Notes: generated from the letters alone by a model not told the origin. A stretch of DNA of 64,000 nt from Chloroflexota bacterium (GCA_964291655.2 OZ219801.1:448001-512000), one strand, 5' to 3'. Shown: positions 4,734-57,883, counted from the stretch's first letter. Numbers and translations are program-made.

Positions 4734-5659
4734 GTGAATGACCCGCGCACACTCCGGCCAATTGAAGCCCTGGCCGAATCCGGCACTCTGCTTAATCGGC
4801 GTATCTGGCTAATCCTGCTGCCGATCGGGCTAGACTTGTTCATCTGGTTTGCACCGCGTGTCCTGCTTGGGGCCGAGCTGGTCCCTCTGGTAGATGGATC
4901 AGCCACCGCGGTCGAAGCAGGTGCTGACCCGGAAACCCCGACCGTGTTGTCATTTGTCCGACAATCAAACCTGCTTTCCCTGATCTTGGGCGTGTGGGTG
5001 CCTTCGATCGGAGTTTCCGCAGCCGGTGATGAATCGGGTACAACCGTAGTCTTGGAGTCGTTTCCTCAGCTAATCCTTGCCTTCGCGTTGCTTTTCCCGG
5101 TGAGTCTCGCGCTGGGCTGTACCTACCTTGCGTTGATCGCATCTGAGGTGCAACAACGGACACTTACGTGGGAGATGCTCGTGCCGCGGGTGATGCGCTT
5201 GACCATGCGGCTAGCCGGACTTGTGGGGATCTTGCTCTTGGTGACGGTGATCCGTTTACCATTGCAAGTGTGATGCTCTCCGTGATCCCGTTGCTAGGAT
5301 CCTTGCTGTTCCTCTTATCCATGATTCTGCTGCTTTGGATTATTTTCTATGTGTTCTTCATCGTGGATAGCATTGCGCTGGTTCGCCAAAGGCTTCCGAA
5401 AGTAATTCGGCTTACGTTGGACCTAATCCATAGCAATCCGTGGTCGGCTATCGGCTTCTTATTCCTTTACTGGCTCATCGTATTTGGCACCAGCATCATT
5501 TGGAGTGTACTGCTTGACTTGGCGATCTTTGGCATAGGAATTGGACGGATTATTGCGACTATTGGCAACGCCTACGTAGGTACGTGGGTAACGATTGCAG
5601 TGTTCATGTACGTTTGGAATCGTCTGCTCATTTACCGGGAGGAACCTACTTCCCCATAG
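4734..5659 (+). pseudogene. Multi-pass membrane protein split by a 1-nt frameshift near 5251
   Basis: Two overlapping hydrophobic ORFs (4734-5273 and 5168-5659); adding one C at ATC|CG (~5251) joins them as ...VTVIPFTIASVMLSVIP...; could be a sequencing error. Confidence 0.7.
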
Positions 5660-5708
5660 CAATCTAAAGAGTCTTGATCTATGAGAATTGTTTCTTGAAA
5701 GGATGTTT

Positions 5709-7676
5709 ATGGCAAAGAAGATCCTGGAAAACGAAGGCGGCACCGCAACCATTGTGGCCGAAGCAGAGCCAACCGCCGCCGACCTAAATGACTATACTGC
5801 CGCCGACATCCAAGTTCTCGAAGGTCTGGAGCCGGTGCGAACGCGGCCGGGCATGTTCATTGGCAGCACCGACGTCCGCGGTCTGCACCACCTCGTCTAT
5901 GAAGTGGTGGACAACAGCGTTGACGAAGCGCTCGCCGGCCTCTGCGACCGAATACTCATCACGATTCATGCGGATTGCAGCGTCACGATCGAGGACAATG
6001 GCCGCGGCATTCCGGTGGACGTTCACGAAAAGACCGGTGTTTCCGCTTTGGAGACCGTGCTTACGCGGCTGCACGCCGGAGGCAAGTTTGGCGGCAAGAG
6101 CTACAAGGTCTCAGGCGGCCTGCACGGCGTTGGCGTCTCTATAGTCAATGCTCTCTCGCTGAAACTCGTTGCCACCGTCTACCAAGCTCCCTACATCCAT
6201 GAGCAAGAATATCGGAACGGCGCACCCCTCGGGAGGGTCGAACGCGTTGGCAAGACCGATCGCAACGGCACCACGATCCACTTCCTCCCTGACAGCGAGA
6301 TCATGGAGACGTTGGACTATGAATTCAACACGCTGGCGCAGCGTTTCCGTGAAATTGCCTACCTCTGTCCCGGACTCCGCATTGAATTCCGTGATGAGCG
6401 GACGAGCAAAGAACTGACATTTTACTTTGAAAGCGGCATCCGCGCATTCGTGCACCAGATGAACCGCCGGAAGACCATCATAAACAACGAGGAAATCTTC
6501 TTTTCCGGTTCTGCCAATTCGCTGCAGTTGGAAGCGGCGATGCAATACACCCAGAGTTACGACGAGCGCATCTACGCATTTGCCAACACCATCAACAACG
6601 TTGACGGCGGCACCCACCTCACAGGTTTTCGTTCCGCATTGACACGCACCTTCAATGACTATGCTCGCAAACAAAACCTCTTGAAGGAAAAAGACCTTTC
6701 CCTCACCGGAGACGACGTGCGCACCGGACTGACAGCCGTCATCAGCGTGCGCCTTACGAATCCCCAATTCGAGGGGCAAACCAAGGCAAAGCTTGGTAAT
6801 TCGGAAGTGCGCGGCTTTGTCGAAACGACAGTCAATGAGAAACTCGGCCAATTCCTGGAAGAGCATCCCAGCGAAGGCAAGGCCATCATCGAGAAGTGCC
6901 TCAACGCTGCCCGCGCGCGCATAGCTGCGCAAAAGGCCCGGGACATGGTGTCGCGCAAGGGCTTCCTGGATGTCTCGACACTTCCGGGGAAACTCGCCGA
7001 CTGCTCGGAGCGCAGTATGGAGAATGCAGAGATTTTCATCGTGGAGGGTGATTCGGCAGGCGGCAACGCAAAGCAAGGCCGGGAACGCCGCTTCCAAGCC
7101 ATTCTCCCGCTGCGCGGCAAGATTCTCAACGCGGAGCGCACGAACCTTGACCGCATGCTGTCCAATACGGAAATCCGCGCACTGGTTACCGCCTTAGGCA
7201 CAAGCATCGGCGAGACGTTCGACATATCGAAACTGCGGTACGGCAAAGTCATCATCATGACCGACGCCGATGTTGACGGCGCCCACATTCGCACGCTTCT
7301 GCTTACGTTCTTTTTCCGTTATATGCGCGAGATCATTACGAACCAGCGGCTCTACATCGCCCAGGCACCGCTCTACCGGGTTGCGCGCAATCGCGATGTG
7401 CACTACGCGTGGAACGACGATGAGCGCGACCGCATTCTCAAGCAATTCAACCGCACAAACATCGCCATGCAACGATACAAGGGTCTGGGTGAAATGAACG
7501 CCGACCAGCTGTGGGAAACCACCATGGATCCGGCCCGCCGTAAGCTCCTGCAGGTCCTGCTGGAAGACGAGGCTGCCGTCAGTTTGGTGTTCGATCGGCT
7601 CATGGGAGACGACCCACAAGCCCGCAAGCGTTTCATCCAAGCGCACGCCAAGGAAGTGCAACACCTCGACGTATAG
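5709..7676 (+). CDS. gyrB: DNA gyrase subunit B
   Basis: EVVDNSVDE, DNGRGIP, SGGLHGVG, EGDSAGG, PLRGKILN, MTDADVDG, RYKGLGEM. Confidence 0.96.
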   Translation: MAKKILENEGGTATIVAEAEPTAADLNDYTAADIQVLEGLEPVRTRPGMFIGSTDVRGLHHLVYEVVDNSVDEALAGLCDRILITIHADCSVTIEDNGRGIPVDVHEKTGVSALETVLTRLHAGGKFGGKSYKVSGGLHGVGVSIVNALSLKLVATVYQAPYIHEQEYRNGAPLGRVERVGKTDRNGTTIHFLPDSEIMETLDYEFNTLAQRFREIAYLCPGLRIEFRDERTSKELTFYFESGIRAFVHQMNRRKTIINNEEIFFSGSANSLQLEAAMQYTQSYDERIYAFANTINNVDGGTHLTGFRSALTRTFNDYARKQNLLKEKDLSLTGDDVRTGLTAVISVRLTNPQFEGQTKAKLGNSEVRGFVETTVNEKLGQFLEEHPSEGKAIIEKCLNAARARIAAQKARDMVSRKGFLDVSTLPGKLADCSERSMENAEIFIVEGDSAGGNAKQGRERRFQAILPLRGKILNAERTNLDRMLSNTEIRALVTALGTSIGETFDISKLRYGKVIIMTDADVDGAHIRTLLLTFFFRYMREIITNQRLYIAQAPLYRVARNRDVHYAWNDDERDRILKQFNRTNIAMQRYKGLGEMNADQLWETTMDPARRKLLQVLLEDEAAVSLVFDRLMGDDPQARKRFIQAHAKEVQHLDV

Positions 7677-7832
7677 GTGTTCCTGTCTTATACTTATGCC
7701 ACGAACGCCGACTGGGAACGGCCGCGACGTGCCGACGTGCGGCAGGTCACGCAAGCAAACTCCCATCCTAGCTCGGTGCACGACCACAAGGATTCAAAGA
7801 GGCATCCTTAAGGAAGTGGAGCCGGCGCGGCA

Positions 7833-9134
7833 ATGAGCATCGTCCCCGACAATGCCCAGTTTGTGTTGCTCAGTTTCGAGGGCCCTGACCGGTACTCGCA
7901 AGCCGGGGGACTCGGCACTCGCGTCACCGAGCTTGCGCGCGCGCTCGCGCAGGCTGGCTTCACCACCCACCTGATCTTCATTGGCGATCCCAACTTGCCT
8001 TCTGTAGAAACTCGCGAAGAAGGCAATCTGCACCTCTACCGCTGGTGCCAGTGGATAAGCCACGCACACCCCACGGGCGCTTACGAGGCTGAATGGGACA
8101 AACTCGTTGACTTTGCTAGCAGCGTTCCTTGGTTCGTAACGGACCGCCTTGTACGGCCCGCCGCCGACCAAGGTCGGATCACCGTTGTGATGGCGGAAGA
8201 GTGGCACACGACGGAAACGCTGTCACGGCTCAGCGACTCTCTGCACTTCAACGGCCTGCGCCAGCAGTGTGTGCTGCTGTGGAACGCTAATAACGAGTTT
8301 GGGTTCGGCCACATAGACCTCCCTCGTCTCGGCTTTATTGCCACCATCACCACAGTGAGCCGGTTTATGAAGCACCGGCTATGGGATTGGGGACTAAATC
8401 CACTCGTATTGCCCAATGGCATTCCCCGCCGCTTGTTGGAAAAAGTGCCGCAAAGGCCGGTAACAAAGCTTCGCAAGGGCATGGCCGCGGACTACTTGCT
8501 TCTAAAGATGGGGCGATTCGATCCGGATAAGCGATGGCTCCAGGCAATAGAAGCTGCGGCCCAACTAAAGCACGCCGGTCACCGTGTACGCTTCATTGCG
8601 CGAGGCGGCCTTGAACCCCATGGAGGTGACGTGCTGCACCGCGCCAGGGAATTGGGATTAGTGGTGCAAGACATCCATAGCGACAACTCGGACTTGGAAG
8701 GTGCGCTCAATGCGATTCTCGCGGCTGAAGAAGCGGATGTATTGAACCTCTGTGAATTTGTGCCTGAGGCACTGCAACGCGTCTTCTATTCTGCCGCCGA
8801 CGCAGTACTCGCCAATAGTGGCTATGAACCATTCGGCCTGGTGGGGCTGGAGGCGATGGCGTGCGGCGCCGTGGTGGTTACGGGAACTACCGGCGAAGAC
8901 TATGCCGTGCAACTGCACAATGCCCTCTCTGTCGAGACTGACGACCCTGCAGAACTGGCCAGCTACCTGCAACTCATCCACAATCAGCCTGACGTAATTC
9001 GTCAGATACAGCGCCACGCGCGGCAGACGGCGGCTCTCTTTACCTGGGATTCGACCATAAGAGACCTCGTGGGGAAGGTGGAGTACCTCGCTACCAAGCA
9101 AGGGATTCACCTGCAGAGCGAAGCAGATGGCTGA
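7833..9134 (+). CDS. Glycosyltransferase family 4 (glycogen-synthase-like)
   Basis: AGGLGTRV N-terminal motif, GRFDPDK, YEPFGLVGLEAMACG. Confidence 0.88.
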   Translation: MSIVPDNAQFVLLSFEGPDRYSQAGGLGTRVTELARALAQAGFTTHLIFIGDPNLPSVETREEGNLHLYRWCQWISHAHPTGAYEAEWDKLVDFASSVPWFVTDRLVRPAADQGRITVVMAEEWHTTETLSRLSDSLHFNGLRQQCVLLWNANNEFGFGHIDLPRLGFIATITTVSRFMKHRLWDWGLNPLVLPNGIPRRLLEKVPQRPVTKLRKGMAADYLLLKMGRFDPDKRWLQAIEAAAQLKHAGHRVRFIARGGLEPHGGDVLHRARELGLVVQDIHSDNSDLEGALNAILAAEEADVLNLCEFVPEALQRVFYSAADAVLANSGYEPFGLVGLEAMACGAVVVTGTTGEDYAVQLHNALSVETDDPAELASYLQLIHNQPDVIRQIQRHARQTAALFTWDSTIRDLVGKVEYLATKQGIHLQSEADG

Positions 9135-10332
9135 ATACCTGGTCATCTACGTAATCGCACATCAACCACGGCGAGTACGTTTACCCGCCAGAGCAATCCC
9201 ACCCGGGACCGCGCCGGAGGACATGGCGCCGTTCCTCTTCGATGAGAAGATGAATGAGCGCTATTTTCGCAAGGTGGCCCGCTACAGCTATAGGCCCGCC
9301 ACAGATCTGTGGTTGCAGCTTCTCGATAGCGGCATCAAGCTCTGCTTCGGTGTCTCAATCTCGCTGATCAGGCAAGCGAAACTGTGGGAGCCATCCGTCC
9401 TTGACGGCTTCAAGCGCATCGTTGCCCACCCCAATACGGAGTTGATTGGCGTCGATCCCTATCACTCGTTCCTCATGCTGATCGATTTGCCCGAGTTCAC
9501 CGCGCGAATGCACTCCATGGCAGACGAGCTTGCCGGTATCTTTGGCAAGCGACCCACCGTGACCGACACGACCGAAATGCTCGTCTCGGAGACGATTGTC
9601 AGCGCGGTAGAGAGTGCCGGCTTTCATGGCGCTCTGATGGATGGCAGGGAGTGGATACTAGACTGGCGCCAGCCCACGAATCTCTACTATCACCGACCGG
9701 CGGTAAAGCTGCTTGCGCGGCACTATGAACTGAGCGATGACGTCGGCTACCGCTTTTCGCAGCGCCAATGGGCGGGGTGGCCGCTCATGGCGGAAGACTA
9801 CGCGCATTGGGTCCGGAGTGCGGAAGGCCAATTTGTGATGGTCGGCTGGGATTTCGAGACGTTCGGGGAACACCAATATTACGACAGCGGTGTGTTTGAG
9901 TTCATGCAGGCGCTGCCGCGGTACCTGCAACGCGAGGGCGTTACCCCCGCAACGGCTACGGAGATGATCAACGCCTACGGCAACCAGGCTCATCAGCTTG
10001 CGCTTCCGCCATTTCCCAGTACGTGGGCGGGGTCGGGCGGCGCCGAATTCTTCCTGGGAAATGAGCCGCAACGCGCGCTCTTTCAACTAATGACCGCCTG
10101 CTACCACAAGGCGCGATTAACCGGCAACGAAACACTGGTCGATCTCGCACTCTGGCTTACCCAGTCCGATAATCTCCACCTGATCAATTGGTGGGGGCGA
10201 TGGGGATCAGAGGCAGAGGTATCCGTCTACTTCATGCCCGACGAATGGTGGAGCCTGGGCGTGGATGGGATTATCTGGGAGCAGCAGTGCGTCTACAAGA
10301 ACTTCCTAAGCGCACTTGACAGCTATCTCTAA
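9127..10332 (+). CDS. Glycoside hydrolase family 57 (alpha-amylase-like)
   Basis: HQP, PYHS, TEM, LSDDVGYRFS, DFETFGEH, STWA, LTQSD GH57 motifs; overlaps the upstream GT4. Confidence 0.88.
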   Translation: MAEYLVIYVIAHQPRRVRLPARAIPPGTAPEDMAPFLFDEKMNERYFRKVARYSYRPATDLWLQLLDSGIKLCFGVSISLIRQAKLWEPSVLDGFKRIVAHPNTELIGVDPYHSFLMLIDLPEFTARMHSMADELAGIFGKRPTVTDTTEMLVSETIVSAVESAGFHGALMDGREWILDWRQPTNLYYHRPAVKLLARHYELSDDVGYRFSQRQWAGWPLMAEDYAHWVRSAEGQFVMVGWDFETFGEHQYYDSGVFEFMQALPRYLQREGVTPATATEMINAYGNQAHQLALPPFPSTWAGSGGAEFFLGNEPQRALFQLMTACYHKARLTGNETLVDLALWLTQSDNLHLINWWGRWGSEAEVSVYFMPDEWWSLGVDGIIWEQQCVYKNFLSALDSYL

Positions 10333-48848: not shown

Positions 48849-48920
48849 GGGCCGGTAGCTCAGTGGGAGAGCGCTGCGTTCGCATCGCAGAAGTCGGGGG
48901 TTCAAATCCCCCTCGGTCCA
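48849..48920 (+). tRNA. tRNA-Ala (anticodon CGC)
   Basis: Cloverleaf: acceptor GGGCCGG/TCGGTCC with G3:U70, D stem GCTC/GAGC, anticodon stem CTGCG/CGCAG with loop TTCGCAT, T arm GGGGG-TTCAAAT-CCCCC; CCA not fully encoded. Confidence 0.96.
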
Positions 48921-48967
48921 CCTCAATCGCCGATTCTCTAAACTTTGTGCACATGTCACATCGGCAA

Positions 48968-50149
48968 CTATTTATGCGTAGCCTCTATACAAGAATCCTC
49001 TGTGCGTTCGATGGAAAAGCTCAGACCATTCAAGCCCCCAGTTGATAGTCCCGCTGCTCGAGAATTCTCTTCCCAACTAATAACCTCAGCCGCGAAGCCA
49101 AGGGTCTGCAACACCCGCAGGATCCGTTTAATAGTGATATAAGGAGCACCAGACCCAATGTAATTGCGCTCTAGTAGGCTAAACTGCTCGGTGAGGGAGT
49201 TGTGCAATCGAAGACATTCATACTCGTCTTGACATAGCAATACCACGACACAGTCGGTGATTGCGAATGGCGGCCCTAGTGGAACATAGGCTATTTTGTC
49301 CTGTCGCGGTTTGCCAACTCTATGAATCAGGACTGCAGGACCAGTAATCGAGCGGGTTCCAAAGGGGACTTGCCTTTCCGACTCTCGCAACCGGTAATCC
49401 TGTAGCTCGGTTGAGTGTACCAGCGGTATGCTCTCTCCCGTCTCAACACTTGGTAGGTTATGAGTTTGAAGTGTTCCGCGTAGCAACCCAATTGTAGGCC
49501 CGGTCACAGTAAGGAAAGGCTCAATCTGAGTCTTGTTGTTCTGGGTTGTAGGGCCGCGTTTTAGATACGCGATAGTTACCTTTAGGCTTACTCCAGGAAA
49601 CTTTGCTGTCTCTTCTAGGACTGCCCGGAACTCTCCGATCTGATTTAGTGCAATTCTAGCATCTTGGTCCCGTTCAGCATGAGATGCCCCTGCAGGCAAG
49701 AGAGTCACAAGACTTCCGTCTGGACTGAGGTACTGCGACGCGATCAGAACGAAAGCCATCGCCGGACTGCAACGCATTCTTAGCCCATTTAGAAGAACCT
49801 CCACTCTCGTCCCGCCACGAGCCGAAAATGGGGGATTCAAGACTGCCAGGTCGACTTTAGCCTTGATTTTCTCGAGATTGGAGAGAGAGTGCCTACTAGA
49901 GTTTTCCAAGAAGTTGCACTGAGCCAAAGTCCAATCGGTTCTGACCTGCGCGAGACTTGCAACTCTATTTCTGCTGATATCACATCCAAAAAATGTTGCA
50001 TTGGGCCACCGTTGCTTGGCGGCAGCCAAGAGTTCACCAGTACCTACAGCGAAGTCCGCGATTGTTCTCGGTTCGCCTTGGCACAGCTGATCCGCAACCT
50101 CAACTAACTTTGCCGCAAGGTGAGGGGGAGTATTGAATTCATCAATCAA
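48968..50149 (-). CDS. N6-adenine DNA methyltransferase (gamma-class order) with C-terminal TRD-like region
   Basis: FNTP (motif X), IADFAVGTG (motif I), GCDI, LNPPF (motif IV), LLP; likely TTG start at 50149, 1 nt after the upstream stop. Confidence 0.85.
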   Translation of the reverse strand: MIDEFNTPPHLAAKLVEVADQLCQGEPRTIADFAVGTGELLAAAKQRWPNATFFGCDISRNRVASLAQVRTDWTLAQCNFLENSSRHSLSNLEKIKAKVDLAVLNPPFSARGGTRVEVLLNGLRMRCSPAMAFVLIASQYLSPDGSLVTLLPAGASHAERDQDARIALNQIGEFRAVLEETAKFPGVSLKVTIAYLKRGPTTQNNKTQIEPFLTVTGPTIGLLRGTLQTHNLPSVETGESIPLVHSTELQDYRLRESERQVPFGTRSITGPAVLIHRVGKPRQDKIAYVPLGPPFAITDCVVVLLCQDEYECLRLHNSLTEQFSLLERNYIGSGAPYITIKRILRVLQTLGFAAEVISWEENSRAAGLSTGGLNGLSFSIERTEDSCIEATHK

Positions 50150-50150
50150 C

Positions 50151-51086
50151 TTAATTCCAAAGCGGGCTGAGCTCGTATATTTGAAGCAAGCCCGTTCCAA
50201 TTGATCGATTCGCCCTGGGAATTGGGTGGTCGTAGACTAGCTCAATTCGCTCTGGGTCCAGAATGGCTAGCATTACTGCCCCTAGGGCGTGAGGACGAGT
50301 ACCTAAAGGCGCAACCTTTAGTCGCGCATTGTGGCAATCGACTGCAATGTCCTTCAATGCATACATGAGGCTGAACGGACAATTCGCGATGGCGAATCGA
50401 ACATTCTGCCATATTGGGCTATCCTCGAACGGAGCTCTATTTCCAAGGTAGGAATGGAAGGGATAGTCCGGTCTGAATCCTGGCGAACCTACGATAGGAA
50501 GAACTCGCTCATAGGGAATCTCTATCTGGTTTAGCGCATAGGCTAGACGAGCACCTTCGAATCCAAGTATCGGCACAAAGTAAACGTCGTCAGAGTCGCG
50601 CGGTTCTGTAAGGCGCGCAAAGCCGGGCAAACTTGAAATCCCCATGATCCTCTCACTAAGATCAAATATTAGTGAATCTGCACTAGCTCCACTAGGAATG
50701 TATCCGAAAGGTTCAACGTAAACGGCATGGACATTTACACCATGCAGAATTGCGCGCTTCAGGACAACGGCCCAAATGTGGTAAGGCAACCCAGTGATGT
50801 TCAAATAGAGTTCTTTACCGATTTTCCCTATTAGGGCTTCCAATTGAGTTGCACTCCTCAACTGAACAGTCGACGAGATCGCACCCACTGTCTCAAAAGC
50901 CATGCTGCCTTTGTCAACGCACTCTACGAATCTGGCACTGAATTCCCGCTCTTCCCACTCCGAAGGATGCTTGGACCTAGGCTCAACTGAATTACTCCAC
51001 AAATAAACGGAATCTGGACTTAGATACAGTTCGTGCCATCCGCATAGTGTCCGTGTATAGAGTGGCCGCTCTTCAAATGGAAGCAT
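50151..51086 (-). CDS. Conserved hypothetical protein of the putative defence operon
   Basis: Alpha/beta motifs YLNITGL, YVEP..Y, LPGF, ILGFEGAR, PGF, APLGTRPHALG, VYDHP; overlaps the upstream ATPase. Confidence 0.75.
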   Translation of the reverse strand: MLPFEERPLYTRTLCGWHELYLSPDSVYLWSNSVEPRSKHPSEWEEREFSARFVECVDKGSMAFETVGAISSTVQLRSATQLEALIGKIGKELYLNITGLPYHIWAVVLKRAILHGVNVHAVYVEPFGYIPSGASADSLIFDLSERIMGISSLPGFARLTEPRDSDDVYFVPILGFEGARLAYALNQIEIPYERVLPIVGSPGFRPDYPFHSYLGNRAPFEDSPIWQNVRFAIANCPFSLMYALKDIAVDCHNARLKVAPLGTRPHALGAVMLAILDPERIELVYDHPIPRANRSIGTGLLQIYELSPLWN

Positions 51087-52956
51087 AGTAGCCCTCGAAC
51101 ATCTGAAGCTGCTCAGGAAGTTCCTCCTCGATTGAGCGACCAGTGTTTGCCAGAATGTGCCTGATAGTGGAGCGAGGACGATCTACTAAGCCTTCTAAGA
51201 CTTCAATTTCGAGTTGCATCTTCCTCTTTCGACGGTGGCTGTATACGAAGAACGGCGCAAAGACAGGGTGTAACCAGTAGTCAAATTCCTGAGTCGCGGC
51301 CTGCTCAATCAACTTTGTGCCGGACTTCCTTACGAGTGCTACGTGCATTACGGCACTGCTGAGTAGCCCACTTTGCCGACAGGTGTAGCTAATTGAACTA
51401 GGTTTCAGGTAGAATTGATTGACTTCTGGCGTGTGACCTTCAGGGGTGGATGCCATTACGCTAAAGACACGACCCAGACCAAGCACCAGCTTGGTTAGTT
51501 GTGCTCCATACGTGGAAACACCTTCAAGTTCTTTGAGAGCACGGGTGCCCACGGCTTGCGCAGCTTCAGTTTGTGAGTCTGCAGGGACTGTCTTGAGTTC
51601 CTGACCTCGTTGATCGGGATTATGTTTTAGACTTTCATAGACAAGCTCTAACGCGTATCGAATGTTGCTATTTGAAATAAGAAGAAATGTATCCCAACCA
51701 CAATATTGCTTTCTGATGCCGCGCCTCCCTCTGCGTATCGTGTACAGCAGGGAGTGCTTGTAGTTTTGGTACCTCGTGTGCCACTTGGTAGGGTTAACTC
51801 TAAGCTCGCTCAATTCGGAACCCAGCGTAGTTCCTTGTGCCTTTGACCAGAAGAGAAGAAAATAGGCCTGAAGACTTGGCAGTTGATCTAGTTCTTGGAG
51901 TTGTTGCTCTGTTAAGACAGTTTCGCGTTTCAATGCCCGTATCTCGGATTCAACGCCAAGATGGCAGGCTTCGTCTTCTTCAGACATTCCGGGCAATAAG
52001 TCGACTACCTTGATGGGTTCCGTTCCAAGTCGCTTTGCTAAGAGATCGAGCCTACCTTGACAAGCCTTAGTGGCAAAAGACCTAAAGTAATCTCCTTCAA
52101 GTGGATCCTCAATCTCAATGAGTTCGTAATCTGCCGGATACATGAGTTGTTCGTCCGCATTCAAGGTCGTCTTAACTTTCCACCCCAGTTGCCTTACTCC
52201 TACCTTGAATGTGTAGGCGTCTCCGGCGTGCTTTATCAGCGTATTCACTACACGCTGTTGATATTCAAGATAGTTCTCATACTCGTCGATGAGAAGAAAG
52301 AAGACCTTACCATTGAAGTCCGGAAGCCCTCTAACGGCCCCAATCAATTGCTCAATTGGTGCTCCGAGCATGGAAAGTCCACGTGGAACTTCATCAGCCA
52401 CATTGTTGATGGCAGCTTCAAAATCCACAAGCGTCATGCGGACCAATTGAGCTAGCCTTCGAATGCTGCGCACTGACTCGCCAATTCTCAAACTTCGAGC
52501 CACCAATTCAAGTTCTTCTTTTGAAATTCCTACTACTGTACCAGTTTCATTCTCAAACCACTCTAGAAAGTCCATCAAGCTCAAAGTGATAGTCAAATTC
52601 AGATAATGACCAAACAGCCGTGACCACCGGTCTTCCGTCAATTCGTCCCCGCTAAAGGCGGTTACGCGATTGGTGTCGACACGATGATACAGCCCGAAGA
52701 ATGGCCAATTCCTAGGATCCGCAGACTGCCTCAGCGCCGATTGACCCGCATATGATAGACCCTTCAAGGCGGTGGTCTTTCCCGTTCCCCGTCCACCCAA
52801 TAGAAAGCAAGGCCTGTTGGTCTGTAACGCCGGAAAGTACCTTGGTTCCGCGAACAACTCGTACAGTTCCTCCCCAAGCCATTCGGCCCGAGTTGAGCCA
52901 AAAAGCTGGTACAGAAGGGTGTGGAGGCTTACTTCTTCCTGATGAGCGGATTCCAT
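51073..52956 (-). CDS. ORC/CDC6-like AAA+ (P-loop) ATPase
   Basis: Walker A GGRGTGKTT, Walker B LLIDEYEN, NIRYALEL, C-terminal YWLHPVFAPFF..S.RRKRK; start 52956 or 52971. Confidence 0.85.
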   Translation of the reverse strand: MESAHQEEVSLHTLLYQLFGSTRAEWLGEELYELFAEPRYFPALQTNRPCFLLGGRGTGKTTALKGLSYAGQSALRQSADPRNWPFFGLYHRVDTNRVTAFSGDELTEDRWSRLFGHYLNLTITLSLMDFLEWFENETGTVVGISKEELELVARSLRIGESVRSIRRLAQLVRMTLVDFEAAINNVADEVPRGLSMLGAPIEQLIGAVRGLPDFNGKVFFLLIDEYENYLEYQQRVVNTLIKHAGDAYTFKVGVRQLGWKVKTTLNADEQLMYPADYELIEIEDPLEGDYFRSFATKACQGRLDLLAKRLGTEPIKVVDLLPGMSEEDEACHLGVESEIRALKRETVLTEQQLQELDQLPSLQAYFLLFWSKAQGTTLGSELSELRVNPTKWHTRYQNYKHSLLYTIRRGRRGIRKQYCGWDTFLLISNSNIRYALELVYESLKHNPDQRGQELKTVPADSQTEAAQAVGTRALKELEGVSTYGAQLTKLVLGLGRVFSVMASTPEGHTPEVNQFYLKPSSISYTCRQSGLLSSAVMHVALVRKSGTKLIEQAATQEFDYWLHPVFAPFFVYSHRRKRKMQLEIEVLEGLVDRPRSTIRHILANTGRSIEEELPEQLQMFEGYYASI

Positions 52957-53828
52957 CCCATCCCTTCCCATCGAAATAGCGGTAGCGTCGCGTCAGGAAC
53001 AGATCCATGCATCGCTATAGCCAAGCCCAACCTATGAAATCCCTGCCAGTCATCTACTGACTTGCCATCGGTGTCGGGGATACCGGCCCTCGCCGAAGCC
53101 CTTCTTACGACTTCTAGGTACTCTTCCCCTCTACCTGCTGGCCACAGAATTGAATTCTCTTCCACAGCTGAGTACTCACGTGAGATGAGCTGTCCAGGCG
53201 ACAGATTCAATCCCTTGCACTCTCTTATGATTGCTTCGCGGCCATATTCAGTTGAGAAAGCTGGCGCGTAGAAAATAGGGACCCCACTTTCCGTCAAGTT
53301 CTGAAGGCCTAAATCTTCCCACATAGTTATCATTTGCTGACCAGTTCCAACAAAGTCATCTACGAGGACAAGTGGGCAACCCCTTGTCGATGCAGTGTCT
53401 GCTGCTTCCTTGGCTGCAAGAAGCTGATTTTCATCCAAACCAAGAATTTGACGTGCTTTTCGAACAAACACTCGGCCACTGTCAGCAATGCTGTCTGTCT
53501 CTCCCTGAATCGGTGCAACCAACGCTGAAGAGAGGAACTCTTTCCAATCCAGGGTGAGTTGTACTGGGTTGCGAGGATCGAGCATTGACATGCTAATGCG
53601 CTGAAAACCAGCTAGGAAAGCAGCATCAAGTAACTCCTCTCCAAAGTACATGAACTGATCCAAGAGGTGAACTGCAACTTCCCGTTCGCGCTCATCAAAA
53701 TTCGACAACCACCTGTCTGGACTTAACTCGCTTTTGAGCGGCCAAAGGCGAACATTCACCAAGAATTCTGCCTTTGCCTTGACCCATTCCGACGACCGGG
53801 CTATAGGAGCTATAGGGGTCAAATCCAT
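52929..53828 (-). CDS. Phosphoribosyltransferase-like protein (conflict-system type)
   Basis: PRPP-binding motif LVLVDDFVGTGQQ; WLSNF, DSG and VPD motifs. Confidence 0.82.
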   Translation of the reverse strand: MDLTPIAPIARSSEWVKAKAEFLVNVRLWPLKSELSPDRWLSNFDEREREVAVHLLDQFMYFGEELLDAAFLAGFQRISMSMLDPRNPVQLTLDWKEFLSSALVAPIQGETDSIADSGRVFVRKARQILGLDENQLLAAKEAADTASTRGCPLVLVDDFVGTGQQMITMWEDLGLQNLTESGVPIFYAPAFSTEYGREAIIRECKGLNLSPGQLISREYSAVEENSILWPAGRGEEYLEVVRRASARAGIPDTDGKSVDDWQGFHRLGLAIAMHGSVPDATLPLFRWEGMGWNPLIRKK

Positions 53829-54374
53829 AAGGTCTAGCCGATTTCTCCAGTGTTGCTTCCCAGCATTGTCAGAGGGTTGGTCTTTAGATCATGACTGGGA
53901 AAGCTTCATAAAACATCGCAACAACAGTTTATCGAAGGAGTTCTCTGAACCGCAAGTCCAGTGTTTTGATCCACGCTGGGACCACTGGTACCCACTACCC
54001 GCGAACGCTAGTTTAGAATTTGAACCTGACTTCCATTACAAACAGTCGGTCTTACATCTGCTGCCTGCGCAAAAACGAAATCTCAAACTTGTGGCAATAC
54101 AACACCAATAGACAGGCATCGCCGCTTGAGGGAATTCACCAGCAGTGGTCGCACACACTCCCACGGGTTGCGCTAGGACCGCGTGCCATTGCCTAAGAGC
54201 CTTCCCACAATCGGACCATCGAACAGCCGATCCTATCCTCGAATTGTCCGAAGCTTCGCTGCCGAATGAGGTTAGGTTCGTGGCCGTAACCAGCCGGCCA
54301 AATTTCTCCTGTGCCCTGCGAGAGGATTGCTCTCCAATCTGCTGGGGCGAGAATTCATCAGGATTGAGCAGCCT

Positions 54375-54560
54375 TTCCAGGACAAATATGCCCAAAGCTA
54401 TTTCATAGACGAGGTGAATCCAGGTGCCGTACTGCCGCTCCAGAGTGTGGGAGGTGCAGATGCCAAGCAACACGGCATTGATGAAGATAACCGCAACGAT
54501 GCCTATTTCAAAGGCACGCTCATTCGTTATGCGCTCAGCGAGTTGTGTCAACCTGTTCAT
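54375..54560 (-). pseudogene. N-terminal fragment of a bacterial voltage-gated ion channel (S1-S2 only)
   Basis: FEIGIVAVIFINAVLLG..TS...IALGIFVLE, followed by unrelated sequence with no S4 or pore. Confidence 0.65.
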
Positions 54561-55069: not shown

Positions 55070-57481
55070 GTGGCTTCGTTGAAACGCCTCATTGGGCTCA
55101 TACTCGGTATTCTCTTGGCGCTGCTCGCGCTGAGTGCGGTTTTCGCCGCCGACTGTAAGTTCGTGCCGGGCTTCATGACAATGCGCGAACTGATCGGGTA
55201 TGAGGTATTCGACGAGTGTTTGGAGGCGGAGGTGCCACAGGACCGAGAGGCGCTCGTCGCCCTATTCAACGCCACGGGCGGCGAGAATTGGAAGTACAGT
55301 GGCAAGTGGCTGAGCAGTGCGCCAGTTGGAGAGTGGCACGGCGTTACGGTTGACGCAAGGGGACACGTAATAGAACTGCGCCTCCAGCGGAACCAGTTGA
55401 GCGGGGAGATTCCGCCGGAGTTGGGCGGCCTCACCAGCCTCACCTCACTGTGGCTCAATAACAACCAGTTAAGCGGAAATATTCCGCCGGAGCTGGGAAA
55501 TCTAACCAACCTGAGAGAACTGAGGCTCCTGCGGAACCAGTTAAGCGGGGAGATTCCGCCGGAGTTGGGCAACCTCACCAACCTGATGGACCTGAGGCTC
55601 AACCACAACCAATTGAGCGGAGAGATTCCGCCGGAGTTGGGCAACCTTGCCAGCCTCACGGATCTGCGCCTTGACTGGAACCAACTAAGTGGGGACATAC
55701 CACCGGAGTTGGGCAGCCTTGCAAACCTCGCGGAACTGCGCCTCCAGAGAAACCTGTTGAGCGGGGATTTGCCGCCGGCGTTGGGTAACCTCGCTCGCCT
55801 CACCACGCTGTTGCTCGACAACAACCGGTTGAGCGGGGCAATACCGCCGGAGTTGGGTCGCCTCGCCAACCTGAGATGGATGTTCTTCCATGAGAACGCG
55901 CTGAGCGGAGAAATTCCGCCGCAACTCGGTAGCCTCACCAATCTGAAAGCGCTGTCCCTCGAGGCAAACCAGTTGAGCGGGGAGATTCCGCCGGAATTGG
56001 GCAGCCTCGCCAAGTTGGAATGGATGTGGCTCTACCGGAACCAGTTGAGCGGAGAGATACCGCCTGAGTTGGGCAACCTTCCGAGGCTCACCTCGCTGTG
56101 GCTCAACCACAACCATTTGAACGGGGAGATTCCGCCAGAATTGGGTAACCTCGCCAACCTGAGCTCGCTGAGGCTCGGGTACAACCAGTTGAGCGGAGAG
56201 ATACCGCCGGAGTTGGGTAACCTAACCTACCTGAGAGAACTGAGGCTCGGCGAAAACCAACTGAGTGGGGAGATTCCGCCGGAGTTGGGCAACCTCGCGA
56301 GCCTCACCTCGCTGTGGCTCCACGGGAACCAATTGATCGGGGAGATTCCGGGCAGTCCGGTTCCGGTTCGTGTCGCGCCGGCGGTCACGCCCCAGGACTC
56401 CCCGGTTCCGCTCGCAGTCGCACTCCAGGAAGTATTCGGCGGACGGGAATTCGAGCAGCCAATCGAGATTGGCGCGTACCCGCTTGGGCCAGCCGACGGA
56501 GCTGGTCCCGGCGTGTTCGTAGCCGAGCGGGAAGGCCGTATCCTGCTGCTGCACCCGGATGGCGACGAGGCCGTCGAGTTGCTCGACATCACTGACCGCG
56601 TAACGATGGAGGGCAACGAGGAGGGCTTGCTCAGTGTCGCGCTTGACCCACGGTTCGAGGAGACCGGCCACCTCTGGCTCTTCTACTCAGTGCAGGGTGC
56701 GGTGCCGTACACAACGCGGCTCTCGCGATTCACGGTGGATCTTGCTGACCTGCGACGCGTGCATTCGGACTCCGAGCTCGTGGTCATAGAAGTCGAAAAG
56801 CCGTACGCAAACCACAACGGCGGCAGTATCCGCTTCGGGCCTGACGGGATGCTGTATCTCGGGTTGGGCGACGGTGGATCGGACCGCGATTCCCAAAATC
56901 TCGAGACCCTGCTGGGCAGTGTCATTCGCATCGACGTCCGTGAGGCCTCAGAAGCCTCGCCATACACCGTCCCGCCCGACAACCCGTTTGTCGATGTACC
57001 GGGGGCGCGACCCGAGATCTGGGCGTATGGGCTCCGCAACCCGTGGCGTATGGCGTTCGATCCGGCAACCGGCGTGCTGTGGGCGGGTGATGTGGGACGA
57101 TCAGACTTTGAGGAGATTAACCACATCGAGGCTGGTGGCAATTACGGCTGGAATCGGCTCGAAGGCTCGCACTGCAACAGTCCCGCAACGGGGTGTGATC
57201 CGGCCGGCACCATCCTGCCCGTGGCGGAGTACGGCCACCACCTCGGTTGCTCGGTCTCGGGCGGCGTGGTGTACGGGGGGGAGGCCATCCAGGCGCTCGT
57301 CGGGCACTACCTCTTCTCGGACTTCTGCCGCGGGCAACTGTGGGTGCTTCCTCCGAATGGCGGCGCCGTGGTTGAGATCGCCGACATCCAGCGGCCAGTT
57401 TCGTCATTCGGCACCGATGCCGATGGCGAGGTGTACGTGCTCACCTTCTGGGGAACCGTGTTCCGTTTAGCGCTCCCGTAG
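55070..57481 (+). CDS. Secreted leucine-rich-repeat protein fused to a PQQ-dependent sugar dehydrogenase (GSDH) beta-propeller
   Basis: Signal peptide; LRRNT-like cap (ALVALFNATGG..W..W...EWHGV); 14 x 24-aa LRR; EEGLL, NHNGG, GDGG, GLRNPWR, GNYGW. Confidence 0.9.
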   Translation: MASLKRLIGLILGILLALLALSAVFAADCKFVPGFMTMRELIGYEVFDECLEAEVPQDREALVALFNATGGENWKYSGKWLSSAPVGEWHGVTVDARGHVIELRLQRNQLSGEIPPELGGLTSLTSLWLNNNQLSGNIPPELGNLTNLRELRLLRNQLSGEIPPELGNLTNLMDLRLNHNQLSGEIPPELGNLASLTDLRLDWNQLSGDIPPELGSLANLAELRLQRNLLSGDLPPALGNLARLTTLLLDNNRLSGAIPPELGRLANLRWMFFHENALSGEIPPQLGSLTNLKALSLEANQLSGEIPPELGSLAKLEWMWLYRNQLSGEIPPELGNLPRLTSLWLNHNHLNGEIPPELGNLANLSSLRLGYNQLSGEIPPELGNLTYLRELRLGENQLSGEIPPELGNLASLTSLWLHGNQLIGEIPGSPVPVRVAPAVTPQDSPVPLAVALQEVFGGREFEQPIEIGAYPLGPADGAGPGVFVAEREGRILLLHPDGDEAVELLDITDRVTMEGNEEGLLSVALDPRFEETGHLWLFYSVQGAVPYTTRLSRFTVDLADLRRVHSDSELVVIEVEKPYANHNGGSIRFGPDGMLYLGLGDGGSDRDSQNLETLLGSVIRIDVREASEASPYTVPPDNPFVDVPGARPEIWAYGLRNPWRMAFDPATGVLWAGDVGRSDFEEINHIEAGGNYGWNRLEGSHCNSPATGCDPAGTILPVAEYGHHLGCSVSGGVVYGGEAIQALVGHYLFSDFCRGQLWVLPPNGGAVVEIADIQRPVSSFGTDADGEVYVLTFWGTVFRLALP
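55367..56353 (+). repeat. 72-bp tandem coding repeat (14 plant-type LRR units)
   Basis: Recurring AACCAGTTGAGCGGGGAGATTCCGCCGGAGTTGGG. Confidence 0.95.
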
Positions 57482-57809: not shown

Positions 57810-57883
57810 GGGCCGGTAGTTTCGCGGGAGGTGGCTGCGTTCGCATCGCAGAAGTCGGGGGTTCAAATCCCCCTCGGTCCACC
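57810..57883 (+). pseudogene. Degenerate tRNA-Ala copy (attR-like)
   Basis: Same length as the tRNA; first 10 nt and last 50 nt identical, D-arm scrambled (GTTT/GGTG cannot pair). Confidence 0.85.

Follow-up and report, generated by a model that had tools for sequence, protein, structure and literature searches.

A PRTase-type operon of the ORC-CDC6-like/CARF6 family in a Chloroflexota genome: a candidate methylation-linked defence module

Described relatives and layout of the operon

Phosphoribosyltransferases (PRTases) act as defence effectors in type III-A retrons and likewise in a DprA-PRTase system that confers protection from T7 and lambda; how they act was described as unknown in the accessible part of the respective paper (PMC9122126). 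As far as the available text of a preprint goes (bioRxiv 10.1101/2022.05.11.491447), ShosTA and PsyrTA are further PRTase precedents, and the family PRTase-CE is listed with the type III-A1 retrons in the excerpt at hand of PMC13712802. Another group of systems, BREX, DISARM, and MADS, joins a DNA methylase to a large P-loop ATPase and has no dedicated endonuclease. The subject of the present analysis, a four-gene operon at positions 48968-53828 of a stretch of 64,000 nucleotides from a Chloroflexota bacterium (GCA_964291655.2 OZ219801.1:448001-512000; hereafter the window), shares features with both groups, as it encodes a PRTase, an ORC/Cdc6-like ATPase, a CARF6-family protein, and a putative DNA methylase. 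With a probability of roughly 0.55 we read it as the PRTase-type member of a modular, ATP-dependent, methylation-linked anti-phage or anti-plasmid family that is built on the ORC/Cdc6-like ATPase and CARF6. The family is already present in model libraries, and the operon is a further member of a computationally catalogued kind. Its genes are the following:

52929..53828, minus strand: gene 1, phosphoribosyltransferase of the PRTase-CE family, putative effector (Pfam, PADLOC, loop for phosphoribosyl pyrophosphate, PRPP)
51073..52971, minus strand: gene 2, ORC-CDC6-like AAA+ ATPase (Pfam, Walker A/B)
50151..51086, minus strand: gene 3, CARF6-family protein, predicted partner of the PRTase (PADLOC, AlphaFold2 model, Foldseek)
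48968..50200, minus strand: gene 4, gamma-class N6-adenine DNA methyltransferase with a C-terminal target-recognition-like domain (Pfam, PADLOC, fold)

The four co-oriented open reading frames (ORFs) of the minus strand (53828..52929, 299 aa; 52971..51073, 632 aa; 51086..50151, 311 aa; 50200..48968, 410 aa) overlap, as listed, by 43, 14, and 50 nt at the junctions of genes 1/2, 2/3, and 3/4, respectively, and they abut or overlap whichever starts are chosen for genes 2 and 4. Gene 2 probably starts at M6 (position 52956, 627 aa), since its homologues are 627 aa long. For gene 4 the most likely start is a TTG at 50149, 1 nt past the stop of gene 3 (393 aa), in view of the DNA itself, of homologues that begin at residues 18-20, and of a predicted local distance difference test score (pLDDT) below 50 for residues 1-16, which appear disordered. 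The guanine-plus-cytosine (GC) content of the operon (49000-54000) is 0.48-0.52, against 0.54-0.62 on the left and 0.59-0.65 from 55000 rightwards. The scan for sigma-70-like promoters and intrinsic terminators within the operon gave fewer consensus sites than shuffled sequence, and internal promoters or terminators were rejected on this ground. No nuclease, helicase, or phospholipase D (PLD) domain was found with Pfam, PADLOC, and NCBIfam in the four operon proteins or in orf174, a short ORF upstream of them. The initial annotation of this DNA had described co-oriented, touching genes richer in AT than their flanks, with intact PRPP, Walker A/B, and NPPF motifs and no nuclease, PLD, or helicase gene; all of this agrees with the ORF list, the composition, the domain searches, and the motif conservation reported below.

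Genes 1, 2, and 3 are full-length, high-scoring members of the group defined by the Pfam families PF24389, PF24390, PF24391, and PF24408 and the PADLOC CARF6 family, and the window shows the traits of that group: a full-length ATPase, CARF6 immediately downstream, and an effector immediately upstream (fused in some relatives). The sibling names and neighbouring accessions of ORC-CDC6-like, PRTase-CE, and HD-CE point to this operon family as the probable source from which the models were curated. The statement in the initial annotation that operons with a PRTase and an ORC/CDC6-like ATPase had been flagged computationally agrees with the existence of PF24389, PF24390, and PF24391, and its term "uncharacterised system" holds for experiments, none being found in the literature searched, and fails for the families, which are catalogued in Pfam and PADLOC. 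The same literature yielded no description of an operon of the ORC-CDC6-like/CARF6 kind, a prior description being possible, and no text that pairs "PRTase" with "Cdc6", or both with "CARF"; "PRTase-CE" occurred in the retron survey only, and Kaur 2020 (PMC7159879) does not contain "PRTase". Beyond the family names, the present analysis adds counts of synteny, the pattern of effector and methylase swapping, an association with accessory genes, and a predicted interface between PRTase and CARF6.

With the type III-A retrons and DprA-PRTase systems (ShosTA/PsyrTA) the operon shares the PRTase family of gene 1 and a PRTase held by a Rossmann-like partner, which is DprA there, according to the accessible part of PMC9122126, and is predicted by modelling here. 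In contrast to them it has neither reverse transcriptase nor DprA, its partner protein is CARF-like, and it has an AAA+ ATPase and a DNA methylase besides. An assignment as type III-A retron was rejected, as the five proteins scanned hold no reverse transcriptase domain (Rfam was not run) and the PRTase is accompanied by ATPase, CARF6, and methylase in 44/44 loci. BREX, DISARM, and MADS differ from the operon, which has only four genes and a PRTase effector and is devoid of PglZ, BrxC, BrxL, DrmA/B, and other mad genes, the CARF6 partner being unique to its family. They were dismissed as candidates, PADLOC giving weak matches to mad2 (2.3e-12) and mad8 (2.6e-4) only and no BREX or DISARM model. 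Restriction-modification of types I-III was discarded because no endonuclease, HsdR/Res, or helicase domain occurs in the four proteins or orf174. The CARF sensors of type III CRISPR and CBASS (Csm6, Can2, Card1, Cam1, Cap4) are the closest folds to gene 3; the operon, however, has no Cas10, CD-NTase, fused nuclease, or pore domain, and the modelled PRTase interface takes in many of the residues that are invariant in gene 3. Type III CRISPR and CBASS were set aside, since their signature genes are not in the operon. The earlier statement that the gene set matches no restriction-modification, BREX, DISARM, or retron architecture is in line with the PADLOC results.

Synteny, exchangeable parts, and the individual proteins

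A genome collection scanned with gene 3 gave eight loci, of which one (L008) was left out for its weak 62-residue match; the seven kept belong to four metagenome-assembled genomes (MAGs) of Chloroflexota/Dehalococcoidia, Bradyrhizobium, Roseomonas, and a Planctomycetaceae MAG, and all four genes stand in the same order and on the same strand in 7/7. A metagenome collection was scanned with the gene 3 alignment, and the best 80 of 151 relatives were taken, which together with the seven genome loci make 87. Among the metagenome loci the ATPase lies directly upstream of gene 3 wherever at least 400 bp are available on that side (70/70), the PRTase upstream of the ATPase wherever there are at least 3 kb (44/44), and the methylase directly downstream of gene 3 in 60 of the 64 with at least 500 bp downstream. 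The four exceptions comprise two loci with the methylase upstream of the PRTase (L069, L072) and two in which none was found (L068, L101). Hence the four-gene synteny, the conservation of which the initial annotation had proposed to check, does recur elsewhere, with the methylase as a core part. Along these lines, the pairwise distances over 47 loci correlate at r = 0.82-0.87 within the trio of PRTase, ATPase, and CARF6, and the faster-evolving methylase follows the other three at r = 0.66-0.72. That the four genes would form one conserved, horizontally moving unit is supported by these sequence comparisons.

A survey of variants, in which PF24389 ATPases were searched and their neighbours inspected, showed a gene matching the CARF6 model directly after the ATPase in all 9 variant loci examined. 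The parts around this pair change, as follows:

G179 (L124, G179:C1:499000-513000, 5636-10100): TIR domain fused to the ATPase; CARF6; N6_N4 (beta-class) methylase; same genus, at a site other than the tRNA-Ala hotspot
G178, G770: Dam (D12) methylase; calcineurin-like phosphoesterase with Pfam wHTH-Calcineurin_assc (PF24408); ATPase; CARF6
G475: C5 cytosine methylase; HD-CE (PF24391); ATPase; CARF6
G675: N6_N4 methylase; PRTase; ATPase; CARF6
G477: dUTPase, followed by the four-gene arrangement of the window
G690: PfkB kinase; PRTase-CE; ATPase; CARF6; no methylase identified
G798, G593, G545: calcineurin-like phosphoesterase; ATPase; CARF6; no methylase identified

Since relatives place TIR, HD-CE, or calcineurin-like enzymes where the window has its PRTase, this position can be rationalized as an effector slot. 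Four unrelated methylase classes (gamma, beta, Dam, C5) fill the other variable slot, so that DNA methylation itself, rather than a particular chemistry, seems to be selected; by the same argument, gene 4 would methylate DNA and mark self. Such swapping of effector and methylase around a constant ATPase and CARF6 is typical of a methylation-linked defence system.

Gene 3 had been called an unknown protein in the initial annotation, a label that has to be given up, because the protein matches the PADLOC family PDLC01913 "CARF6" from end to end (5.5e-94). No Pfam family was found for it, all of its 742 homologues are annotated "hypothetical", and the ESM Atlas returned clusters named "hypothetical protein" only. 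Its AlphaFold2 model, based on 51 homologues, has a mean pLDDT of 87.5, and among PDB structures Foldseek ranks the CARF proteins Csm6, Cam1, Csa3, Can2, and Card1 highest, with probabilities of 0.9-1.0, weak E-values of 3e-3 to 4e-2, and a TMq of about 0.3. CARF proteins normally sense cyclic oligonucleotides. The complex predictor, fed with alignments of 51 rows each from the same loci, gave PRTase and CARF6 a score of 0.92, the best of three controls reaching 0.01; in the calibration the mark was attained by 58/80 solved complexes and 2/110 mismatched pairs, counts that apply only roughly since alignments of our own were used. The prediction runs agreed in at least 76% of the contacts, with a pLDDT of at least 82 for the partner. 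On the side of the PRTase the predicted interface comprises the N-terminal helical part (about residues 58-100) and on the side of CARF6 residues 4-13, 127-133, and 201-236, which take in many invariant positions (P8, T11, Y129, P202, G203, P209, F210, C236). The modelling thus suggests that the PRTase binds the CARF6 protein, the score being a confidence of the model, not a measurement. A sequence search of the PDB gave no relative of either partner, so that recall of a solved complex by the predictor is unlikely.

Gene 1 matches Pfam PRTase-CE (PF24390) over residues 38-297 (1.2e-43) and, further, the retron-type PRTase_III-A models of PADLOC (8.4e-14). Its PRPP loop, V156-D157-D158-F-x-G-x-G-x-Q, is kept as VDDFxGxGxQ across 54 loci and 51 alignment rows. 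In gene 2, residues 23-587 cover positions 2-571 of the 571 in the Pfam model ORC-CDC6-like (PF24389, 2.1e-132), and every one of its 678 homologues carries PF24389. Walker A (G59..K65-T-T, GGRGTGKTT) and Walker B (D229-E230, IDEYE) are kept across 59 loci. Taken together, the positions of the PRPP loop, of Walker A/B, and of the methylase motifs reach a conservation of no less than 95%, or for a few no less than 80%, over 54-61 homologous loci. The sequence search of the PDB returned no solved-structure relative of gene 2 either. The DefensePredictor system DS-41 was tried as an identity for gene 2 and rejected, as NCBIfam DS41_1 is matched at the P-loop only and the score is 16.5 bits where the cut-off is 370. 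In another predicted system an ORC-CDC6-like component was proposed as the DNA sensor, according to the available portion of a preprint (bioRxiv 10.64898/2026.10.19.760177).

Gene 4 gives modest matches to Pfam N6_Mtase (5e-6), Pfam MTS (3.3e-7), and PADLOC MTase_II (9e-16). Across 73 family members no variation occurs in motif I (D49-F-x-x-G-x-G), at D74, or in motif IV (N122-P-P-F125), and both domains of the AlphaFold2 model (pLDDT 88.9) fit M.TaqI (TMq 0.53) and CamA (0.55). With motif I, NPPF, and a separate target-recognition-like domain, the protein has the features of the gamma-class, M.TaqI-like enzymes. Its profile matches M.BseCI and HsdM and equally METTL5 (1e-9), and the catalytic half also resembles HemK; the substrate is presumably DNA, an assignment strengthened by the swapping of methylase classes among the relatives.

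A further trait of the family is an extra gene of deoxyuridine/thymidylate metabolism at the edge of the module, detected by tblastn in 29/87 loci; 63 of all 87 have at least 600 bp beyond an end. By type these are trimeric dUTPase (17), a TM1382-like Nudix hydrolase (8; PDB 3e57, 9.3e-37), and ThyX (6); with a single exception they sit no more than about 500 bp from the module, mostly in the same direction. A Pfam tally of the 148 nearest flank ORFs, drawn from 61 loci, is led by dUTPase (14) and also holds ThyX (4), dimeric dUTPase_2 (3), N6_Mtase (3), ThyA (1), and DHFR (1). In Moraxella osloensis pNP7-2 and in an Acinetobacter record the operon opens with a dimeric dUTPase, and the Bradyrhizobium copy is edged by both a dUTPase and a ThyX gene. 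For G407 and G477 the linked dUTPase represents a second genomic copy, and G407 also has ThyA elsewhere besides its linked ThyX. The window's copy has no such edge gene, the single dUTPase and the ThyX of its genome lying elsewhere. Both dUTPase and Nudix hydrolases yield a deoxynucleoside monophosphate (dNMP) and pyrophosphate. That unrelated enzymes with the same products share this position implies that the activity at the module edge is under selection. One side observation touches the same chemistry: in G178 (L125, 2508-3245) a gene for SRAP (abasic-site-shielding, SOS-associated peptidase) lies just upstream of the Dam/calcineurin variant, and together with the dUTPase link this single case hints at uracil or abasic-site stress.

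Proposed mode of action and competing explanations

In the defence reading, the M.TaqI-like methylase would mark host DNA with N6-methyladenine at a specific motif, and the ORC/Cdc6-like ATPase would bind DNA and undergo an ATP-driven switch upon meeting unmarked incoming DNA. CARF6 would keep the PRTase in a complex and relay this switch, possibly tuned by a small nucleotide ligand. The PRTase, once freed or activated, would attack the nucleotide or PRPP pool instead of cutting DNA, such that the invader or the infected cell ceases to replicate. If the operon is protective, it represents a compact four-gene system that occurs across many phyla and also on 129 Klebsiella plasmid records. It could then reveal how self-marking by methylation is coupled to interchangeable non-nuclease effectors (PRTase, TIR, HD, phosphoesterase), which role a CARF-like protein takes in a system without a cyclase, and how PRTase effectors, which are shared with retrons and ShosTA, act.

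Several points weigh against this reading. DNA binding by the gene 2 ATPase is deduced from the family name alone. The assignment of gene 3 as a CARF protein draws on the name of the PADLOC model and on Foldseek E-values of 3e-3 at best. A cyclase (Cas10/CD-NTase) was found neither in the operon nor among the 25 leading families in the tally of 148 flank ORFs, the remaining genome not having been searched. A methylase is not universal, for none was identified beside the operons of G798, G593, G545, and G690, where not every ORF was scanned; no ORF in these four loci contains the motif [DNS]PP[YFWH], and a PDB search with large neighbours of the variant loci left two without a match and identified one as ThiC. 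Known defence genes are sparse among the 148 nearest flank ORFs (type I methylases 3, CapP/M78-like 2, HipA 2); on the proximity to defence genes, which the initial annotation had proposed to check, the flanks thus show a modest presence only. Finally, the frequent extra dUTPase, Nudix, and ThyX genes are left unexplained by the model.

Three explanations compete with this reading. The operon might be a non-immune modification module, in which PRTase and methylase, with accessory dUTPase, ThyX, Nudix, or PfkB enzymes, serve the carrying element by producing or inserting an unusual base or by upkeep of its pyrimidine deoxynucleotide pool. The 29 loci with an edge enzyme, the dimeric dUTPase as first gene in the Moraxella and Acinetobacter records, ThyA and DHFR once each among the nearest flank ORFs, the PfkB kinase beside a PRTase variant, the second dUTPase copies in G407 and G477 (the former with a ThyA elsewhere), and the lack of a nuclease would all suit such a function. 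TIR, HD, or calcineurin-like enzymes in the PRTase slot, however, are hard to fit to one biosynthetic pathway, 58/87 loci as well as the window's copy do without an accessory gene, and the occurrence on one viral contig and on no true phage record is unlike phage base-modification pathways; we regard this explanation as distinctly unlikely. Somewhat less remote, while still unlikely, is nucleotide signalling, according to which the variable enzyme (PRTase here, TIR in relatives) makes a messenger after infection that CARF6 senses, ATPase or CARF6 being the executioner. It would draw on the CARF fold and family of gene 3 and on the established fact that TIR and PRTase enzymes can yield nucleotide products; a PADLOC CARF6 model with a transmembrane extension (PDLC01924), weakly matched by relatives, would suit a sensor-effector, and an extra dUTPase or Nudix hydrolase could clear the signal and thereby set a threshold. 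On this scheme, however, the window operon would keep no recognisable killing domain, the HD-CE and calcineurin-like phosphoesterases in the slot look like degraders rather than signal makers, the modelled tight complex of PRTase and CARF6 is more easily reconciled with an effector that stays bound than with a messenger that diffuses, and the retention of a DNA methylase of any class goes unexplained.

The occurrence on plasmids suggests yet another function, namely maintenance of, or competition between, plasmids and islands, by addiction or by exclusion of rival plasmids, in place of phage defence. Relatives of gene 3 are found on 149 plasmid records (129 Klebsiella, 132 conjugative), the variant on pKPHS2 adjoins repA, and it is established for restriction-modification that a methylase with a toxic partner can act as an addiction system. 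Most loci examined are nevertheless chromosomal or metagenomic, with no plasmid genes in view, and this explanation overlaps the defence reading, as it uses the same parts and differs in the target only; we consider it improbable, and the least probable of the three.

Within the defence reading, a more specific and speculative version, to which we give little credence, would account for the edge genes. PRTase-type members would then act via the deoxyuridine/thymidylate branch, in that the PRTase, let go by CARF6 when the ATPase meets unmethylated DNA, upsets the balance of dUTP and dTTP or destroys (deoxy)nucleoside monophosphates by pyrophosphorolysis, with the edge enzymes either feeding this reaction or shielding the host from it and the CARF-like protein serving as an adaptor that holds the effector and needs no cyclic oligonucleotide. 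If true, this would amount to a methylation-gated, nuclease-free immunity resembling induced thymineless or uracil stress, and in any case the link to dUTPase, ThyX, and Nudix provides a concrete biochemical lead.

Hotspot, mobility, and neighbouring genes

The surroundings of the operon contain the following features:

49068..54269, no strand: low-GC inserted segment carrying the operon, about 5.2 kb (alignment to L001/L025, GC)
48849..48922, plus strand: tRNA-Ala(CGC), left border of a variable hotspot (ARAGORN)
57810..57883, plus strand: degenerate second tRNA-Ala copy, right end of the repeat-bounded interval (ARAGORN)

Over 49068-54269 G000 and the loci L001/L025 are 92% identical, whereas their flanks are only 76-83% identical, which argues for a recent transfer of this segment; no integrase was found within it. 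The second tRNA-Ala copy is 90% identical to the first and altered in the D-arm; it is still called by ARAGORN and is probably a pseudo-tRNA. It also exists in G080, a genome without the operon, and the interval between the two copies holds, beyond the inserted segment, a gene with leucine-rich repeats (LRR) and a glucose/sorbosone dehydrogenase (GSDH) part at host-like GC. The "repeat-bounded island" of the initial annotation is therefore composite: the tRNA and its repeat are real, and the shared mobile segment is 49068-54269 only.

The tRNA-Ala flank is kept in 17/17 genomes of the genus with differing content downstream, and the operon occurs in three of them (G000, G270, G405). Two more, G401 (69% complete) and G402 (contig end), are uninformative at the hotspot and were left out of the counts, as was G123 (a weak partial match with no ATPase alongside). 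In other genomes the hotspot contains a helicase of 871 aa (G179), a transposase of an insertion sequence (G406), a gene with RCC1 repeats (G161), or almost nothing (G188), and in the closest relative, G080, whose flank is 95% identical and which is without the operon, a pair of M78 peptidase and DUF3892. This pair (L015, 6206-7176; the peptidase is ImmA/IrrE-like) might form a further small system of conflict or toxin-antitoxin-like type. Only 4/87 loci have a tRNA within 550 bp of the module, and tRNA adjacency was rejected as a family trait for this reason; the window's own tRNA-Ala site is a hotspot that varies within the genus. Phage integrase was counted 6 times among the 148 nearest flank ORFs.

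The family is widespread. The gene 3 profile matches 5/401 genomes in a sample of the phylum (two of the matches being weak), and full-length PF24389 is present in 5/401 of this sample and in 9/401 genomes sampled from the phylum of G407. As for the plasmid records, most of the listed rows for the 129 from Klebsiella share identical match values. On pKPHS2 (L111, CP003224.1, 2626-7702) a methylase, a PRTase-CE (2.9e-50), an ORC-CDC6-like ATPase (6.8e-117), and a gene-3-like protein make up a distant variant. This type was found in 4/5426 complete E. coli genomes, in all cases on plasmids of laboratory transconjugants, and RefSeq annotates it there as three times "hypothetical protein" and an "N-6 DNA methylase". 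The viral contigs in the collection scanned included one with the module, which is complete there, and two "phage" records carrying it hold chromosomal genes (efp, cstA); a phage-borne system was rejected on these grounds. One of these records, L112 (CAKLQF020000018.1, "Acinetobacter phage MD-2021a"), has efp, cstA, kamA, and tRNA-Val around the module and is likely a bacterial contig. Some 5 kb separate the module in Moraxella osloensis pNP7-2 from a gene annotated as anti-phage dGTPase; the neighbourhood at L110 (12489-14894) comprises a PfkB kinase, a 7-cyano-7-deazaguanine synthase, and this dGTPase at about 3-5 kb from the module, and can be described as nucleotide-centred defence.

Two neighbours of the operon in the window deserve mention. 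Upstream of it, at 54036-54560 on the minus strand, lies orf174 with its 174 aa, apparently a chimeric remnant, of which the first ~114 residues resemble a gene conserved elsewhere in all relatives of the genus and the tail resembles short fragments beside the module in L001/L025. On the plus strand, 55070-57481 encodes a protein of 803 aa with about 12 tandem leucine-rich repeats of 24 residues (a period of 72 nt) and a glucose/sorbosone dehydrogenase beta-propeller (PF07995, 9.2e-51); on the opposite strand, the long ORFs across this region are artefacts of the repeat.

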